Below, piece by piece: positions 44-15,524 of a stretch of 64,000 bases of DNA. Made by a program: the position numbers and the translations under genes. Positions within the stretch are counted from its first letter, which is position 1. Each line of letters opens with the position of its first letter. The stretch is from NCBI GenBank assembly GCA_965215015.1, contig OZ244042.1:4416001-4480000 (forward strand), in the 5' to 3' direction. Source of the DNA: Candidatus Poribacteria bacterium. GTDB taxonomy: Bacteria; Poribacteria; WGA-4E; PCPOR2b. The notes below the pieces were generated by a model. That model was not told the origin of the DNA and did not search any database. It saw nothing but the letters and a program-made list of their open reading frames with translations.

Positions 44-1966
44 TCAGAACCATGTTGTATACAGAGGCCTCTGCAGAATAATGCTCAGTAAGCCCCAATA
101 AGTGCCAACGATGAAATCCCCCACTACTAGTCCCATGAAAAACGGGACAACCTTCCGATAGCTCGTCGCCCCGCCATGTTTTAAGATCAGCAGCTTTATC
201 CCCCAGCAGACAAAGAGCGCGAACCAGTAGACATCAATTGTGCCGGAACTAATCCCCAGAATATATCCCGCTGGGTGAAATGGAAACCATATAAAACGCA
301 TCCGCATCCAACCTATCATGATTGAAAAAATAGCTGAACCACCAATAATATTTACACCTAGAGTATCAGGTTCTTTAGGGTTCTGTAACCACCCACTTAG
401 GCTATTGCACGCTTGGGTGCCTGCCGCTAACAATTCCCCTGCAGTTGAGGCTCCGTACCGGTAAAGCATGACCGGAAAAATCCAGAATGCCAGGAGAACC
501 CCAAAAATTAGGGAAAGCATCATCGCCCAAGTGAGTCGTCGGGTGTTGGTGCCGGTTCCTTCAGCGGACTTAAAGGCTTCCAATTGGTGGGGCATGGGAT
601 GGCTTCGGTTTAACCGATTGAACCAATAAAACAGCGAGAACATAGTTAAATTCGGCGCACCGATTTTGCGTGTTCCAAACGCAGAAATGAGCACCACTTG
701 TGGGTTCACGAGGACGATTGCGTGTAAGGGAGGCCCCAATTCTGCCCGCATTCGCGTGAGTGCTGTAGCGATTATAAAGTAAAGTCCGAAAAATGTCGGC
801 ACAAGCCATAGAGACATCCCCAAACTATTGCAGTAGAATGTCAGGGCGATCATTCCACCGATAAGACAGAGCACCGCTGTCCGATAACGCATTGGCTCAT
901 CAGAATCATCAAGCGTTGATTTTAGGTTAATAACGTTCTTGAAGATTTCCCAAAAATACCGTCGTCCCATGTAGAGTGTCATCACACATAACCCAATCAT
1001 CGCCCCGGTGGCTTGTTCACCAAAGAAAGGATAGCGTGGCAAGGTGTTCCAACCCATCATCGCACCGATTAGTCGCTCCATTTTGCGAAACAGAAAGAAG
1101 AACCAAGTGGAGAAGGTGAGATCTAAAGGTATCAGGAAGGAGAGACCAATAAGAAATGGGTAGAACCGCATTGGCAACGCGCCGATGGCATTCCACGGTT
1201 CTTCTGTGAAAAAGATACCCAGATTGTAGGTAGGCTCCTTGATTGGGATACGGGGAATCTTCGGATATATAAAGCTTATGCCGTTGATGAGACTGATTGC
1301 ACCCGCAACGCTGAAACCTATCCACATGAGCCGATTGCGAAAGAAACCGTGGGTGGGGTTGGTCATTTCTATGGGGATTTGGATAATCGGATAGGCGAGT
1401 CTCTCATGTTCGATCCACTGCTTCCTAAGGATAACATTGAGACAGATTAGCATAAAAAAGAGGACAGAAATCAGGAATGACCATGCAATGGCGGGCCGAA
1501 TCCAGAATCGGTAGAAACCTGTCACCCAGAAGGCAGATTCGCCTTTGTAGAAATATTCGACAGCGGCAGGGTCTCGGACGAGCAGCACATCCGGAAGGTA
1601 TCTGTGAAAGAGATTAGCCCAGTCGTTTGCAGGCGTGGCGTAAAAATAGGCGTGGGGGATAACCCCCATCATACAGACCATGTTGTCGTGGGCGGTGACC
1701 GCTGTAGTTGCGGAGACAGTACTATAAATCATCAGCAGTTCCGCCTGCGAGAACGGCTCCTTCGACATGAACCGTCCACCGATTTTGTTAAACAAAATTA
1801 GAAAAAAAAGGAAAAAAATTGAGAGCTGTGGGAGGGACATGGAGGTCCAGTGGAGCGAGTGCCATATCATCTCCTCAAGTGCCACAAGGTAGAGGCACAG
1901 GGGCATAAGCAGTAATCCAAACAGAATTGCTTTAATTGAGAGGCGGGAGGTTTCGACTTGTTTCAT
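44..1966 (-). CDS. DUF6785/DUF6784-type polytopic membrane protein (OPT-like putative peptide transporter), paralog 1
   Basis: 640-aa ORF with many TM helices; motifs RKQWIEHERLAYPI, RMRAELG, FPFHPAGY and PFFMGLVVGD are typical of this family. Confidence 0.75.
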   Translation of the reverse strand: MKQVETSRLSIKAILFGLLLMPLCLYLVALEEMIWHSLHWTSMSLPQLSIFFLFFLILFNKIGGRFMSKEPFSQAELLMIYSTVSATTAVTAHDNMVCMMGVIPHAYFYATPANDWANLFHRYLPDVLLVRDPAAVEYFYKGESAFWVTGFYRFWIRPAIAWSFLISVLFFMLICLNVILRKQWIEHERLAYPIIQIPIEMTNPTHGFFRNRLMWIGFSVAGAISLINGISFIYPKIPRIPIKEPTYNLGIFFTEEPWNAIGALPMRFYPFLIGLSFLIPLDLTFSTWFFFLFRKMERLIGAMMGWNTLPRYPFFGEQATGAMIGLCVMTLYMGRRYFWEIFKNVINLKSTLDDSDEPMRYRTAVLCLIGGMIALTFYCNSLGMSLWLVPTFFGLYFIIATALTRMRAELGPPLHAIVLVNPQVVLISAFGTRKIGAPNLTMFSLFYWFNRLNRSHPMPHQLEAFKSAEGTGTNTRRLTWAMMLSLIFGVLLAFWIFPVMLYRYGASTAGELLAAGTQACNSLSGWLQNPKEPDTLGVNIIGGSAIFSIMIGWMRMRFIWFPFHPAGYILGISSGTIDVYWFALFVCWGIKLLILKHGGATSYRKVVPFFMGLVVGDFIVGTYWGLLSIILQRPLYTTWF

Positions 1967-8597: not shown

Positions 8598-10019
8598 CTA
8601 TTTCATCACTACCATTCGTCGGGTCTCGGAGAAGTCGTCAGCCAGAAGCTGATAGAAATAAACCCCACTTGCCACGGACTGTCCTGTATCATCTTTACCA
8701 TCCCAGTAGACTGCACGCTGCTGGTTCATGTAAGCCCCTGCAGCCTGTCTTCCAACATCAATAGACCGGATGAACTCGCCCTTGACGTTGTAGATTCGCA
8801 CGGTTACAGTAGCGGCTTCGGCAAGATAGTAGGGTATCCACGTTTCAGGATTGAAAGGATTGGGGAAATTTTGCATCAAGCTCGTGCGTTTGATGTCTCC
8901 AAGAGTCGTAAAGTATTTGCTTTGTGGCTCAACTGAACGAAGCTCAAACTGAGGATTCCATCGGGCACTTTTGTCATTACCGGGATCATTAGTGAGATTC
9001 TTCAGCGCACCACCATGTATCATGTATATCTCTCGATTTTTATCCCGTCTAGATTCAAACAAGATCCGCCTCCCTTTACTAGACCAAATAGGGTTCTGAT
9101 CGCTACCAGGGTCATTGCTGAGATTGACCTGATTGTTTCCATCGGGGTCCGACTTATAAATCTCCCAATTACCATCGCGTTTGCTTTGAAAGACGATGCC
9201 GCCGGGGGACCATTCAGCTCTTCGGTCATCCTTATCATTTTCAGTGATCCGCGTCAGGTTCTCCCCATCAATGCCTACCGTATAGATTTCCCAGTTGCCA
9301 TCTCGCTTCGATTCAAAAACGACCGCTGTACCATCAGGCGACCAGCGTGCCCGTTGATCCGGTGCCTCATGATTGCTAAGATTTATCTGATTTTTTCCGA
9401 TAGTCCGTTTTTCTGCGTCCGCAATAAAGATATCCATCTGGGCCCTATCGTTGATTTTGTTACGCTCGCTCTCAAAAACAATTTTGGTTCCGTCAGGAGA
9501 CCATGACCCTTCCTGGTCTTGGCCAACGCCTTCACCATCTGCATTTGTTATATTCACCAGGGCACCCGCTTTGCCCCTTGCATCTATCGTCAGGATTCCC
9601 AGATCCCAATTGTCAGCGTTTGGAAATCCAACGGAGTAGAGAAGAATCCGTGGATCTCCGGCAGGGGCCCATCGGGGTTCAGACAGTTTGACTCCCGGTC
9701 CATCGGGCGGGCCTGTCAGGTTTGACTGTTTCGGTTTTTGAGGGTCAGTGAGATCAACGATAAAGATATCAAAATTCTCGCCACCGCGCACATTGGCATC
9801 GAAAACGATGAAACTACCATCAGGCGACCACTCGGGGGTGAACACCTTGGATTTGTTCTTTGTGAGTTGCTTAATCTCGCCACTATCATACAAAAGATGA
9901 ACCTCATCGTCGCCGGAGCGGTCCGAGATAAAAGATGCCATAGGCACCTGCGCGTATGCCGAACCGATAAACAGGAGAACGAAGCTGCCCAATAGGGTAA
10001 TAATACCTTGACGTAACAT
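8598..10019 (-). CDS. Secreted TolB-like/PD40 protein with C-terminal FlgD-Ig/T9SS-like domain, paralog 3
   Basis: Same architecture as 7122..8549, with long identical DNA tracts. Confidence 0.88.
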   Translation of the reverse strand: MLRQGIITLLGSFVLLFIGSAYAQVPMASFISDRSGDDEVHLLYDSGEIKQLTKNKSKVFTPEWSPDGSFIVFDANVRGGENFDIFIVDLTDPQKPKQSNLTGPPDGPGVKLSEPRWAPAGDPRILLYSVGFPNADNWDLGILTIDARGKAGALVNITNADGEGVGQDQEGSWSPDGTKIVFESERNKINDRAQMDIFIADAEKRTIGKNQINLSNHEAPDQRARWSPDGTAVVFESKRDGNWEIYTVGIDGENLTRITENDKDDRRAEWSPGGIVFQSKRDGNWEIYKSDPDGNNQVNLSNDPGSDQNPIWSSKGRRILFESRRDKNREIYMIHGGALKNLTNDPGNDKSARWNPQFELRSVEPQSKYFTTLGDIKRTSLMQNFPNPFNPETWIPYYLAEAATVTVRIYNVKGEFIRSIDVGRQAAGAYMNQQRAVYWDGKDDTGQSVASGVYFYQLLADDFSETRRMVVMK

Positions 10020-10062
10020 TGTTAGCTCCTTTCCAAAAATGATAAGCTCCTTTCAACAAAGA

Positions 10063-10256
10063 TAAGACTTACGCATTTCAGTGGTGAACAACGATGGTGT
10101 TCCCGTGCTTTGAATTCCAATCTTATCGGGGAATTGTGTTCTCCGGAGATGAATCGCCGAGGATACCATGACTATAGCTCAATAATCATGGTTCAACCAG
10201 GGGCATTGCGCGTCTTTTCTGGTGTTGGCCTTGAGCGTTCAACTGCGTAAGTCCTA
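10063..10256 (+). mobile_element. MITE-like element, family A
   Basis: TAAGACTTACGCA...TTCAACTGCGTAAGTCCTA, flanked by AAAGA direct repeats. Confidence 0.78.
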
Positions 10257-10349
10257 AAAGATAAGAGATTTATGGGAAATGATGGTGAAAGTGTAATGGA
10301 AGGCAACAATAGATTTGAAACTCCATTACACCTCACCACACAAATGGTT

Positions 10350-11051
10350 TTACTGAGTAACTGCTGGTGTTCCACCACTTTTTAGTATGCCCCAAGTGGT
10401 TGCAAGTTTCCCTTTGCTCTCAACAGCACGTGGATCTTTTCTAGGAAACTCGGTGGGCCAAGGGTCGTCATCCGGTTGCTCGTCTTGGTCTTGGCTGAGC
10501 AGCATCTGATCAAGATTATGCGGCTGTTGTCTCGGCTGTGAACGTATTACATGGAGACCGCGTTCCTTTGCTTCCCATTCGACAACCGTCAGGGGTGGAA
10601 CGCCTTGGCTGAGCCACTTGTAAATACCAGCATCGAAAACGTCACGCCAATTGCCCAATCCACGACCCATAAAATCCGGGTCCGCGGTATGCTCTGTGGT
10701 ACCGATTTGGTTATCAAATTGTAACCAAAAGGCGTCAGTACCGGTGTTGCCATCGCTTTTGCCTCTTGCCCAGATGTAGTATGTGCCTTCGTCGCACCAG
10801 AACTCAACTTGCCAATACGCTGTTGGATCTGCAACCGGTGGGTTCATAGCACCACCGATAAATTGAAATGCAAGGCCATTGGACGCGTCGGCATCTCGCG
10901 CAAATGCAGTATTTTCTGGCGATGTTTCGCCATAATCTCTAATCGTCTCTGCGCTGATGACAACCTCGGTAATCGCAGCAAAGCTGCTAGAAGCTATGCC
11001 GACAACACAAAGTGCCATAAGCATACAGATTAATAAACTTGGTGCTCTCAT
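10350..11051 (-). CDS. Secreted hypothetical beta-sandwich (CBM-like) protein with C-terminal KLATTWGILK motif
   Basis: Start MRAPSLL behind AGGAGG; signal peptide; GTYYIWARG...DAFW motif of jelly-roll modules. Confidence 0.7.
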   Translation of the reverse strand: MRAPSLLICMLMALCVVGIASSSFAAITEVVISAETIRDYGETSPENTAFARDADASNGLAFQFIGGAMNPPVADPTAYWQVEFWCDEGTYYIWARGKSDGNTGTDAFWLQFDNQIGTTEHTADPDFMGRGLGNWRDVFDAGIYKWLSQGVPPLTVVEWEAKERGLHVIRSQPRQQPHNLDQMLLSQDQDEQPDDDPWPTEFPRKDPRAVESKGKLATTWGILKSGGTPAVTQ

Positions 11052-11325
11052 TATTAAGTAACCTCCTAATAGGCTATTAAACATTTGGTATATAAAAATA
11101 GGTTCTGTTGACATTTTGACAAATTGAACCAATCCTGAATACGCCTTGAGGCAATTTTGAACAACCGCCTCGATTTTGGGCGGATTGCCCAATGATTACA
11201 GCGTTTGCCGAATTGGTGACAGCCAAATGCCAACACACCTTACCTCAACAACATGAGTTTAAGGGAATGCGTTGGCATTCCCTTAAGGGATTCGCTTCAG
11301 AAACAGATAAAACATCACATTTACT

Positions 11326-11355
11326 ATTCTATAGCATTATAATAGAGACTGTCAA
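11326..11355 (-). promoter_or_regulatory. Sigma70-type promoter pointing toward the secreted-protein cluster
   Basis: TTGACA-18 bp-TAGAAT on the minus strand. Confidence 0.5.
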
Positions 11356-11609
11356 GACTTTTTTACCATAATTATTTTTTTAAGGAGAGGAACGATAATA
11401 AGTATACCATTGTTTGTCAAATACCGATAAACATTGGCGCGGGCATCAGGGGTCGCCCGAATAAATCGGTATTTATCTCTGTTCATTCCAAATGGCAAAT
11501 AGTTCAATGTTACCATTAATAAAAAATTGTACGCTAAATCAACAAGCTTAGAGGACGATGGCTAAAACCCAAGCTACCAAAGGGCTTTTGGCAGGTGGAC
11601 GCTTATAAA

Positions 11610-11643
11610 ATAATTCCATAGAATAGTAATTCTATGGAATTAT
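11610..11643. other. loxP-like recombination site (13-8-13)
   Basis: ATAATTCCATAGA-ATAGTAAT-TCTATGGAATTAT; perfect inverted arms; 34 bp upstream of the recombinase relic. Confidence 0.7.
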
Positions 11644-11677
11644 TAGGGGTTATGCACCCGGTCCTGGAAGAGTAATC

Positions 11678-12040
11678 ATGAATGAATCAGCGACGAAACG
11701 GAGAAATTAGTTAAAGCTAGCATCGCAGCGAGCACCGTCGAGACCTATCACCTCGCAATGCAACAGTTGGAAATCTGGTTGGCTGGACGCTTCTTGAGCG
11801 ATAGCCTACTTGCAAATTACATCATGGGGTTATATCAAGATGGACGCTAGCGACAATCAGTAAAATTGTCGCTGTGGTCAAATGGACAGTAAAAAATCAC
11901 GGCGTGGGGATCCCCTTTGAGATCGCGGAGAAGACACTTGCTAGCATTCGACGCAAAGGCAAAGATCGAGCGCGGGGTTAGGTAGATGGCATGATATGGA
12001 GCGAGTCTGTGCGTTTGCCGAAGCGGATAATACCGTAAGT
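11678..12040 (+). pseudogene. Cre-like tyrosine recombinase, N-terminal part (frameshifted, internal stops, truncated)
   Basis: Stitched frames read SDETEKLVKASIAASTVETY...LLANYIMGLYQDG / ATISKIVAVVKW...TLASIRRKGKDRARG*VDGMIW / ERVCAFAEADNT; the relic ends before the catalytic domain. Confidence 0.75.
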
Positions 12041-12289
12041 TGCTTTGAATCCCGATCTTATCGGGGAGGCATCAGGTCAAGGACTCTCGGAACGGAGATT
12101 AGCGCAATCTGTCAAATGTCAACCGAACCTTGTTATTGCACTCAACTAACCGGATTCAGATGGAAATTCCTTGAGTTTGTTATTATTTTTTGATACACTA
12201 CAACAAAGTTGAAATAAGTAAGGACCAATCTATATGTTCACCCTATCAGGGGGTATACACAGATACACGCCGACTTTAAGGAGGTTTGA

Positions 12290-12883
12290 ATGTCAGAAGC
12301 AGTCAGTAACGCGAGAGTCGAAGATTACAAAGGTATCTTGCAACAATATTGTCAGAAACGAGCTTTAGAGAATTTAACCTATGAAACGGATCAACAGGGG
12401 CCTCTCAATGAACCGAGTTGGATTGTCACTGTTAAGTATGGAGAAACAACCTACACCACACCAGCACCGATTCGTGGATCTAAACGCTTCGCGGAAAAGA
12501 TGGCAGCCAAACAGATTCTGGAACAAATAGAATCCCACCAAGAAGCGTTTCTAGTAGGTTGTTCTGAGTCCCGATCGCATCGGAGCGATTCCGTTGAAAC
12601 AACCGAAACGCAGGAGCAGTCAACAGAAGTATCGTCCCCAGAACCCCTCTATGTACCGACTGAGCTTGTTACTACAGTACTTGGCATTGCCAACCACCGG
12701 TTGGCTGGACTGCAGCGCGGCACACGCTACCGCGACTCAGTCGAATCCAAGCAAAGCAACCAAGCATTTGCACAGAACCTAGCAGAGCTCACCATGCAGA
12801 TTGTGCGTGAAATTGCGAATGCTGCAGAAGCTTCCAGTGTCAAATTTGGTGATACATCATCACAACCAGAATCTGATGAATGA
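12290..12883 (+). CDS. Double-stranded RNA-binding motif (dsRBD) protein
   Basis: DYKGILQQYCQK...GP...GSKRFAEKMAAKQIL; no RNase III domain; RBS AAGGAGG. Confidence 0.75.
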   Translation: MSEAVSNARVEDYKGILQQYCQKRALENLTYETDQQGPLNEPSWIVTVKYGETTYTTPAPIRGSKRFAEKMAAKQILEQIESHQEAFLVGCSESRSHRSDSVETTETQEQSTEVSSPEPLYVPTELVTTVLGIANHRLAGLQRGTRYRDSVESKQSNQAFAQNLAELTMQIVREIANAAEASSVKFGDTSSQPESDE

Positions 12884-13151
12884 CAAGTGATACTAAATCT
12901 GCCTCCAAATGTTACAAAGGCGGCCTTGTGACACGATAATCGAAAGCCCATATAAAAATTCACGCCTCATTCGTCACGTTTCACACGATGCCACAGGGCA
13001 ATCAGGCATATAGTAGTAGGCATACTCCGTATGCCGTAACCTCTCGTAGCCATAGAGCCTACCCACGATTCATCGGGGTTGCCTAACCGGTGATCTCCGC
13101 TGCGTAATTTCTATAACAGATTCAATTCCCCTACGCTATGCCATTATAGAC

Positions 13152-13180
13152 TTGACAAAAAGCAAGATTGTCCTTAAAAT
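13152..13180 (+). promoter_or_regulatory. Sigma70-type promoter
   Basis: TTGACA-17 bp-TAAAAT. Confidence 0.6.
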
Positions 13181-13427
13181 GACTTGGGCTTTCGTATGAA
13201 AGACGGTACAGGCATAGGAAGCTCAATAAAAAAAAACAAGATAGTCTGTCGAGAAACAAAGACAAAGATAAGAATAGAAACTTGAAGGGCATCAATCTAT
13301 ATCAGGACGGGACTCTGATTGTTATTAGTCTTGCTGACCACCACTTTGTTGGGTTTGTTGGATGACGTGATGCTTCCAAAGACCAACGGATACCTCCAAT
13401 TGCACTCCTCATAGAAAGGAATAAATA

Positions 13428-15524
13428 ATGTCTAATAACCCGAAGCATACTAACCGACTCATCAACGAAACGAGTCCCTACCTCCTGCAACATGCACACA
13501 ATCCTGTTGATTGGTATCCGTGGGGTGAGGAAGCAATCGCGCAAGCCACGCAGCGAGATAAGCCCATCCTGTTGAGCATTGGCTATGCTGCCTGCCACTG
13601 GTGCCATGTCATGGAGCACGAATCCTTCGAGAATGAGCAGATTGCCGCGGTCATGAATGAGCATTTCATTAACATCAAGGTTGATCGTGAAGAACGCCCT
13701 GACTTGGATGAAATTTACATGAATGCTGTCCAAATGCTTACGGGGCAAGGGGGTTGGCCCATGACCATGTTTCTGACACCGGATCTAAAGCCGTTCTACG
13801 GTGGCACCTACTTTCCCCCCGATAACCGCTACGGGCGTCCGGGGTTTCCACGGGTGTTGCTTGGTGTTGCAGAGGCGTATAGGGAGCGTCCTGACGCGGT
13901 GGGAGAACAGGCAGATCAGATTATCGCTAACTTGAATCAGTTGTCTGAAATAGAAGGGCATGGTCATCAGTTGACAATTGATATGTTGGATCGGGCATAT
14001 CAGGATTATCTATCACGATTCGATCACCATGACGGTGGATTCGGGAGTGCGCCTAAGTTCCCACCGAGTATGGGACTCTCGCTGTTATTGCGTCACTGGC
14101 ATCGCACAGGTAACCCCAACGCGCTTAACATGGTCGAAGTAACACTGGAAAAGATGGCGCGCGGTGGGATGTATGATCAGCTTGGCGGAGGATTCCATCG
14201 TTACTCAGTTGATGAGAGATGGCTCGTTCCCCACTTCGAGAAGATGCTCTACGACAACGCTTTGTTGAGTGTTGCTTATTTGGAAGCATATCAGGCAACG
14301 GGGAAGGTTTTTTATCGTCAAATCGCCACGGAAACGCTTGATTACGTTTTGTGTGAAATGTACGATGCGGAAAAAGGGGGCTTTTACTCAACACAAGATG
14401 CGGACAGTGAAGGCGTTGAGGGCAAATTCTTCGTTTGGATGCCAGACGAGGTAGAAGGTCTCCTTGGGGAGGAGAAAGCCAAGATCTTTTGCGAATATTA
14501 TGATATTACTGAGCATGGCAATTTTGAACACAAAAACATCCTGCATGTCCGAACACCGCCAGATCTATTTGCCAGAAAACTGGGTATGGATTTGGGTGAT
14601 ATAGAGGATATCCTCACCGAAGGGAGACAGAAACTCTTTGGAGCCCGTGAGGAACGGATTAAGCCCGGCTTGGATGACAAGATTCTCACAAGTTGGAACG
14701 GTTTAATGATTCGGAGCATGGCAATGGGGTATCAGGTCCTCGGTGATGAACGTTATCAGGAAGCCGCAGAAAAATCTGCGAGATTCATTTTATCTGAGCT
14801 CTCCCAAGATAACGGACTGTTGCTCCGTACACACCGTGCGGGCAAAAGCCACCTGAATGCTTACCTTGAGGATTATTCCTACTTCGTTGCCGGTTTAATC
14901 AATCTCTACGAGGCAACCTTCGCCGTTGAGTGGCTGAAAGAGGCTGAACGGTTGAATCAGATCATGATTGATCAATTTTGGGATGAAGCAAATGGCAGCT
15001 TCTTCTTTACAAGCAAAAACCACGAAACTCTCATCGTCCGATCAAAACCGGGGTATGATGGTGCAACCCCCGCCGGTGTGTCGATAGCTATCCATAATTT
15101 GTTGAGACTTGACAAACTCCTCAACTGTCCAGACTTCCGGGAAAAGGTGGAAACTACTCTCGATGTCTATTATCATCAAATCGAGCATTCGCCCAGCGGA
15201 TCGGCGCAGATGCTATGCGAGCTGGATTTTCTACTGTCCACACCCAAAGAAATTGCGATTGCCGGTCAGCGGGAGAACGAGGACACCCAAGCGGCGTTGG
15301 CAGCTATCCATAGCCGCTTCGTGCCAAACAAAGTGCTCGCTTTGGCTAGCGATGGAGAAAATGTCAGCGATTCGATTCCACTCCTTGAAGGTAAAACACA
15401 GATTGATGGTAAGGCGACAATCTATGTATGTGAGAACTACACTTGCCAAGCCCCGACGACAGAGGTGGAAGAATTGGCGGAGCTGCTTCAGTTAGGGGGA
15501 CTGCCCGAGGCGTCCAACCTATAG
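13428..15524 (+). CDS. Thioredoxin domain-containing protein, YyaL/SSP411 (DUF255) family
   Basis: [39 protein letters not shown]. Confidence 0.93.

Follow-up and report, generated by a model that had tools for sequence, protein, structure and literature searches.

A perfect lox-like palindrome beside a decayed recombinase gene is probably one site of an invertible promoter in Poribacteria

Introduction

What is the role of a perfect palindrome of lox-like dimensions that lies directly upstream of a ruined recombinase gene? The locus lies in a 64,000-nucleotide stretch of a Candidatus Poribacteria genome, referred to below as the window. The original prediction took the palindrome to be a lone target site of an uncharacterised family of Cre-like recombinases. 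As described below, the family does appear to be Cre-like, but the site is not alone: together with a second, inverted site farther from the gene it surrounds a segment that carries a predicted promoter.

The palindrome

The site under study is:

11609..11644, no strand: putative gene-proximal recombination site, a perfect 16-4-16 palindrome; related imperfect sites lie at the same place in relatives

The palindrome had been described as a perfect 13-8-13 structure. This is exact for 11610–11643, although a repeat search extended the perfect arms to 16 nt each (11609–11624 and 11629–11644), leaving 4 nt between them. In the lox register the site consists of an arm at 11610–11622, a spacer at 11623–11630 and a second arm at 11631–11643, and the 34-nt string is ATAATTCCATAGA-ATAGTAAT-TCTATGGAATTAT. 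A direct count agrees with the earlier figure of 9 matches out of 13 between this arm and the loxP arm. The spacer had also been called asymmetric, which is correct for the central AGTA only; the rest of the 8-nt spacer ATAGTAAT is itself symmetric.

The palindrome is real and beyond chance, because as single-stranded DNA it is predicted to fold at −13.8 kcal/mol (z = −9.0, with 0 of 200 shuffles as good), because the genome (one contig of 5,943,281 bases) contains 30 perfect hairpins with a stem of at least 16 and a loop of 0–12, and because among those 30 its sequence occurs once. A chance palindrome was rejected on the rarity of such hairpins and on the comparison with shuffled sequences. 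Separately, we note that the genome contains families of perfect hairpins, AGAAACCGAGTTTTT...AAAAACTCGGTTTCT and CTGCTAAATGCCTC...GAGGCATTTAGCAG, each present at several loci (for example 4671675, 3541929 and 1823127).

The idea that the genome might hold further sites found little encouragement. No second exact copy of the 13-nt arm occurs in the 5,943,281 bases, matches with one mismatch number 4 compared to 3 for a control pattern, and a solo half-site upstream of one intact paralogue (L009, described below) is only partial. In this genome full arms are confined to the window locus, and the segment described below is present once. A related palindrome had further been expected upstream of homologues. 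A related 34-bp site that is partly palindromic does occur in the same place, but a scan upstream of 19 homologues found no perfect palindrome of 9 bp or more: perfect symmetry sets the window's copy apart.

A stable hairpin such as this, followed on the minus strand by a T-rich run, might be a transcription terminator, or else the operator of a regulator unrelated to recombination, given that in relatives the site overlaps the −10 box of a predicted promoter, where a bound protein would repress transcription. The terminator reading was rejected: only 3 of the 16 pairs are G-C, and a scan for intrinsic terminators (a G+C-rich stem with a T run) did not call the palindrome. Moreover, the hairpin is not conserved in relatives, whereas its pairing with a distal site is, and we regard both roles as scarcely credible. 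An Rfam search of 10000–13500 gave no match at E values up to 1.

The recombinase pseudogene and its intact paralogues

Two features lie immediately downstream of the palindrome:

11679..12036, plus strand: tyrosine-recombinase pseudogene, N-terminal domain only, with frameshifts near 11685, 11848 and 11990 and a TAG stop at 11979–11981; it ends at 12036
12037..12134, plus strand: multi-copy repeat of approximately 100 bp, replacing the rest of the recombinase gene; approximately 40 other places in the genome match it, and depth peaks there

The frameshifted N-terminal remnant of a tyrosine recombinase is present just downstream as had been claimed, its ATG at 11679 being 35 nt past 11644. Its pieces run from 11686 to 11847 in frame 2 and from 11805 to 11978 in frame 1, with a shift to frame 3 near 11990. 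They are too short for Pfam, but a tblastn search with an intact paralogue matched paralogue residues 11–64 at 80% and 67–125 at 63%. The 65-residue open reading frame at 11996–12193, which had been read as a recombinase fragment, is recombinase-like over approximately 14 residues only. Similarity ends at 12036, where the multi-copy repeat starts, and the whole catalytic domain is therefore missing. The gene carries at least three frameshifts, a stop and a truncation, and two sister genomes hold similarly decayed copies, likewise in this orientation; the earlier suggestion of recent decay is thus doubtful.

Within the repeat are a CCCGAT-N3-ATCGGG palindrome and, in addition, the motif CAAATGTCAAC. 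To the left of the segment, 11099–11160 holds part of the repeat in the opposite orientation, so that the whole unit is bracketed by inverted copies of the repeat. Another copy lies within the remnant recombinase gene of a related locus (L058). In sequencing run X7, a contig from a relative of approximately 89% identity (depth 41) joins 11067 to 12164, the segment, the pseudogene and both repeat copies being missing or replaced.

The same genome encodes two intact paralogues of the recombinase, of 305 residues (locus L008, 987–1904, minus strand) and 303 residues (L009, 996–1907, minus strand). Both carry PF00589, that of L008 with an E value of 2.1e-16. The proposed kinship to Cre is supported by these proteins: their top 17 matches among PDB sequences are all Cre or Cre-derived (E values from 4.8e-07 to 7.8e-06), followed by a XerC-like protein at 3.9e-05. 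In the alignment of the L008 protein to Cre, the R of LLRI, the K of sKT, the H and R of GHSxR, the W of AGxW and the Y of xHY align with what we take to be the R, K, H, R, W and Y of Cre. NCBIfam Xer models match the paralogues at E values of 1e-15 to 1e-20, yet the scores are far below the cut-offs for membership, at 71.7 bits against 220 for the XerA/integron-integrase model, 67.1 against 329.6 for XerD and 56.3 against 335.15 for XerC. A metagenome scan with the recombinase gave one distant locus only.

The original prediction allowed for use of the site in trans. This is possible, because the genome contains two intact paralogues, and it is plausible for one of them in particular, since L009 retains upstream a solo, half-conserved site whose core TAGAATAGTAA and outer arm are identical to the window at 24 of 25 positions. 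Upstream of the other paralogue (L008, 1910–2260) the segment has been replaced by two tandem, unrelated units of approximately 115 bp and the distal repeat is mutated (ATTCTC); L008 therefore has no switch of its own.

A distal partner site and an inverted segment

Where the scan for perfect palindromes had found none, short-word BLAST, in which window 11200–11685 was compared to 22 related loci, revealed imperfect sites and an inversion. The features concerned are:

11307..11340, no strand: putative distal partner site in inverted orientation (BLAST, alignment and repeat-pair scan)
11333..11617, minus strand: invertible segment in orientation B (defined below), the 285 bp between the repeat cores, reverse-complemented compared to relatives (alignments, BLAST and orientation tally)
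11259..11286, no strand: left-flank hairpin with a perfect 12-bp stem and a 4-nt loop, kept beside the distal site in most related loci
11574..11594, minus strand: terminator-like hairpin, at the end of the segment away from the promoter (consensus match only)

In the short-word BLAST, the left flank (11256–11311) and the 5′ end of the gene match relatives on the same strand, while for 11350–11447 and 11482–11579 the matches, in the DNA preceding homologous recombinase genes, are on the opposite strand. Direct alignment with relatives breaks down within the segment. By contrast, the reverse complement of 11300–11660 aligns end to end with 14 relatives, with a mean column identity of 72%. The limits of similarity on the two sides are TACTATTCTA and TAGAATAGTA, which are the window's cores at 11321–11332 and 11618–11629; the inversion break points thus fall within the inverted repeat.

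The two sites are related as follows. A perfect 12-bp inverted-repeat core, TTACTATTCTAT, at 11321–11332 pairs with 11618–11629, and 17 of 19 positions match between 11322–11340 and 11610–11628. Within the distal site, the inner arm (11328–11340) agrees with the palindrome arm at 11 of 13 positions, the spacer is at 11320–11327, and the outer arm (11307–11319) agrees at 7 of 13. Because the distal outer arm is such a poor copy, the sites may need accessory factors or may differ from simple lox sites. In the alignment, the imperfect sites of relatives keep the frame ATAATT...TAGA, 8 nt, ...AATTAT.

For the left-flank hairpin, the consensus fold has 11 predicted pairs, four of which show a double change, in one sequence each, and its G-U pairs are compatible with the plus strand only.

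The orientation of the segment in the window is not an artefact of assembly, because contigs of three runs from two studies (X1, X2 and X5) each span 10800–12400 in this orientation. The joint expected of the alternative orientation was not listed in the contigs of four runs, contigs being blind to minority forms. The contigs of run X7 do not cover 11556–11663, perhaps simply because the assembly graph breaks at the palindrome where depth is low.

As for the symmetry of the palindrome, the inner arm that formerly belonged to the distal site is in the window identical to the outer arm of the proximal one, and in relatives the corresponding sequences show approximately 9 identities in 15–16 positions (by eye). 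As guesses at how perfect symmetry arose, we suggest homogenisation after the two were juxtaposed, or selection for tight binding.

These results can be set against another explanation, that the palindrome is a stand-alone lox-type site, as in the original prediction; it would then serve a mobile element, in excision, integration or the resolution of dimers, and not promoter inversion. A 34-bp 13-8-13 palindrome does adjoin a Cre-like gene, and it is a site that the search rules in the accessible text of PMC10250229 would retrieve; in addition, the paralogue L009 has a solo half-conserved site upstream, and the contig from the relative of approximately 89% identity, which joins 11067 to 12164, indicates that the whole unit can be absent. 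However, a stand-alone site does not have an inverted partner 285 bp away with the intervening DNA inverted compared to relatives. In one orthologue group the gene downstream of the recombinase is conserved in 8 loci, so that the recombinase gene appears to be chromosomal rather than hopping, and its immediate surroundings showed no phage or plasmid genes. We therefore consider a stand-alone site very unlikely, and continue with the inverted pair.

Co-variation of the two repeats

A perfect repeat pair of 11–19 bp, with the copies 270–290 bp apart, was found in 36 of the 49 loci scanned. For the analysis of co-variation 47 loci were scanned, of which 32 passed a filter requiring CTTGACA or TGTCAAG near an end (the filter dropped some loci, including L020 and L029). 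Removal of identical segments left 18 distinct switches. The 5 nt beside ATTCTA fall into eight classes: ATGCT, ATACT, ATAGT, ACACT, ATACC, GTGTT, ATGTT and TTACT. The class is the same at both sites in all 18 switches, compared to 52 of 306 when partners are swapped between loci. Kin among the 18 are not independent; nevertheless, each of the eight classes requires matched changes at two places.

The variable 5 nt sit in the presumed 8-bp spacer. The 13-8-13 register proposed for the palindrome fits these data, since it is in the spacer that the loci differ from each other and in the spacer that partners agree. In Cre-type sites the spacer is free in sequence but identical between partners, according to the available text of PMC10250229, and partner-matched variation of the spacer is the pattern that would be expected of such sites.

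The predicted promoter and its presumed outputs

Two further features indicate what the segment may control:

11326..11355, minus strand: predicted sigma-70 promoter, with TTGACA at 11355–11350, 18 nt, and TAGAAT at 11331–11326 (consensus match only)
10350..11051, minus strand: divergent gene of 233 residues, presumed to be what the switch drives in its present orientation; GGAGG precedes the ATG, and the N-terminus is hydrophobic and signal-like (by inspection only)

The predicted promoter matches the consensus at 11 of 12 positions, which is the best match in 10900–12400. Both TTGACA and TAGAAT are invariant in the 15 aligned sequences, one locus being off by one base of spacing. TTGACA lies within the segment, while TAGAAT is made up of the last 4 nt of the inner arm and 2 nt of the spacer; in the window the −10 box sits in the distal site. 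Because TAGAAT belongs to the repeated part of the site, both orientations rebuild the same promoter with the same 18-nt spacing. In relatives, the predicted promoter faces the ATG of the recombinase approximately 55 nt downstream. In the window it faces left, towards the divergent minus-strand gene at 10350–11051.

This gene matched no Pfam or NCBIfam family. More generally, in 14 of 17 loci the gene at the far side lies on the divergent strand and, by inspection, has a signal-like N-terminus. Pfam finds LRRs in the far-side proteins of L020 and L028, LRRs together with a dockerin in that of L040, and WD40 in that of L061. In the orthologue group comprising L008, L015, L016, L020, L022, L023, L027 and L031, the gene downstream of the recombinase is common to all and the far side varies. 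Downstream of the pseudogene in the window, a plus-strand open reading frame of 197 residues (12290–12883) carries a dsRNA-binding motif (PF00035, E value 4.5e-10, residues 13–79); its C-terminal half belongs to no family.

Orientation of the segment among relatives

We then searched 60 relatives with the segment, which gave 29 non-self matches, and scored each against the recombinase gene. In orientation A the promoter points towards the recombinase, and in orientation B away from it, as in the window. Orientation A with a full-length recombinase accounts for 20 of the 29, and one (L064) is a deletion. Orientation B was scored for four: L049, L051, L058 and L060. Of these, L049 and L051 represent one lineage from another genus, with only the first 40–50 codons of the recombinase left, and L058 has recombinase remnants and has lost its proximal site by deletion. 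The remaining four (L040, L044, L052 and L061) have no recombinase within 1.5 kb. L044 is in orientation B, with 85% identity to window 11099–11485, and its proximal half and recombinase are gone. Perfect repeats persist in L040 (14 bp) and in L061 (19 bp); the switch of L040 fronts the LRR-dockerin gene, and that of L061 lies between two divergent genes for secreted proteins, one of them the WD40 protein. L052 is a weak match of 54 nt only and is uninformative.

A search for orthologues of L061 within its genus singled out none, its flanks being multi-copy gene families. When 176 genomes of the phylum were searched for the exact pattern of the B-type left junction, only the window was found; this reflects a pattern that was too strict, since it missed L044.

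A further comparison comes from a diverged subfamily. In L060 the repeat AATTAGCATTAT occurs twice, approximately 190 bp apart, and a predicted TTGACA-17-TATAAT promoter faces away from an intact recombinase of 302 residues (orientation B). L074, in orientation A, also has an intact 302-residue recombinase, 80% identical to that of L060. The segments of approximately 200 bp in these two loci are 86% identical only after one of them is reverse-complemented, whereas the gene starts align directly. Both orientations therefore exist with intact enzymes. They are found in different genomes, and may also coexist in one population. Beside the distal repeat of L060, a transposase-like open reading frame of 315 residues (identified by eye; 451–1398, minus strand) replaces the conserved left flank.

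Within the window's own subfamily, every copy in orientation B has a decayed, dead or missing recombinase. Inversion may accordingly have been a rare event in evolution, and not a frequent phase variation. Copies in orientation B with a dead enzyme fit a switch that was locked once the enzyme decayed, a gene that decayed once it had lost its promoter, or rare one-off inversions.

This raises the alternative that the window contains a once-active switch that is now a fixed relic, in which inversion and palindrome were one-off events (for example, through template switching at the repeats during replication) and the palindrome has no present function. Such a history would account for the heavy decay of the recombinase, for sister genomes with the same orientation and further deletions that include the proximal site (L044 and L058), for the presence of orientation B alone in contigs from three runs, and for the perfect symmetry unique to this copy. 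It sits less well with the survival of both sites and of the 12-bp core despite decay of the adjacent gene, or with the two intact paralogues, one of which (L009) shares the core TAGAATAGTAA and outer arm at 24 of 25 positions in its upstream site. The co-variation of repeats across the family also favours recombination at the sites. We judge a functionless relic to be unlikely.

Proposed mechanism

In our view the palindrome is probably the gene-proximal site of a recombinase-linked invertible promoter with lox-like sites. The anatomy of the locus, its inversion compared to relatives, the co-variation of the repeats and the consensus of the promoter were all observed. In the mechanism that we propose, two 34-bp lox-like sites in inverted orientation (11307–11340 and 11610–11643) would bracket the segment of approximately 285 bp that carries the −35 box. 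In orientation A, found in relatives, the promoter would read through the proximal site into the gene of the Cre-like recombinase; in orientation B, found in the window, it would read leftward into the divergent gene for a putative secreted protein. Strand exchange by a Cre-like tyrosine recombinase within the 8-bp spacers would flip the segment. Catalysis of the flip by this recombinase, firing of the promoter and reversible flipping within populations are inferred from sequence. With the segment in orientation B and a dead recombinase beside it, the switch of the window would be either locked ON for the left-hand gene or flipped only in trans, by one of the two intact paralogues.

The switch is thus a probable on/off control of secreted proteins in a sponge-symbiont bacterium. 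A broader proposal, to which we give even weight for and against, is that Poribacteria carry an active and undescribed family of Cre-like invertible promoters that makes secreted eukaryote-like proteins (LRR, WD40 and others) phase-variable in the sponge, with the promoter alternating between recombinase and target; that the spacer classes, of which there are at least eight, could be orthogonal lox-like pairs; and that the copy in the window is locked ON or served in trans.

In sponge symbionts, eukaryote-like repeat proteins are believed to mediate interactions with the host. If the proposal is correct, a switch placed before genes for such proteins would allow symbionts to vary them cell by cell. 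For recombinase engineering, the family would offer compact Cre-like enzymes of approximately 300 residues together with natural 34-bp sites in which the divergence of the spacers is matched between partners.

Comparison with known systems

Our literature search found no report of invertible DNA or phase variation in Poribacteria, the one phase-variation paper retrieved being unrelated, and none that joins a sponge symbiont with invertons.

In the integron platform, the gene for IntI has attI just upstream, and an outward promoter, Pc, reads into variable neighbouring genes. The Poribacteria locus resembles this in having a tyrosine recombinase gene with a site just upstream and an outward promoter into variable neighbours. 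It differs in that no attC-like cassettes were seen, and in that the promoter itself moves.

The fimS element of E. coli is an invertible promoter element of approximately 300 bp with short inverted repeats and adjacent genes for the tyrosine recombinases FimB and FimE, and controls a surface structure. The Poribacteria switch is likewise a short invertible promoter element with inverted repeats and an adjacent tyrosine recombinase. Unlike in fimS, the repeat contains the −10 box, the other output is the gene of the recombinase, which diverges from the target gene, and the enzyme has its best solved-structure match in Cre, with lox-like sites of 34 bp.

The switches of Bacteroides that use Tsr-type tyrosine or Mpi serine recombinases are also invertible promoters. 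Invertons of Bacteroides and other bacteria are the subject of a survey whose reference list names the Tsr and Mpi papers (PMC11602134); its main text does not mention Poribacteria or sponges. In both cases promoters invert next to genes whose products are secreted or lie at the surface, a genome holds several switches, and some switches are orphans that might be served in trans. The two differ in phylum and in recombinase family.

The resemblance to Cre/loxP, and to Dre, Vika and YR1-11 as they appear in the accessible text of PMC10250229, lies in a 34-bp 13-8-13 site close upstream of the gene. The same text describes a G(T)-A-T(G)-A motif that adjoins the spacer and a conserved T at arm position 7; the Poribacteria arms end in T-A-G-A, which fits the motif, and the T at position 7 is absent. 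As in Cre, the catalytic R-K-H-R-W-Y align, including the Trp that is typical of Cre. The similarity to Cre is nevertheless remote (best E value 4.8e-07, approximately 32 bits), the sites of relatives are partly symmetric, and they form an inverted pair around a promoter, located on a chromosome and not on a phage or plasmid. The system would work like known recombinase-linked invertible promoters, with four differences: its enzyme is Cre-like, its sites have a 34-bp lox-like frame, its −10 box lies in the repeat, and its recombinase gene is one of the outputs.
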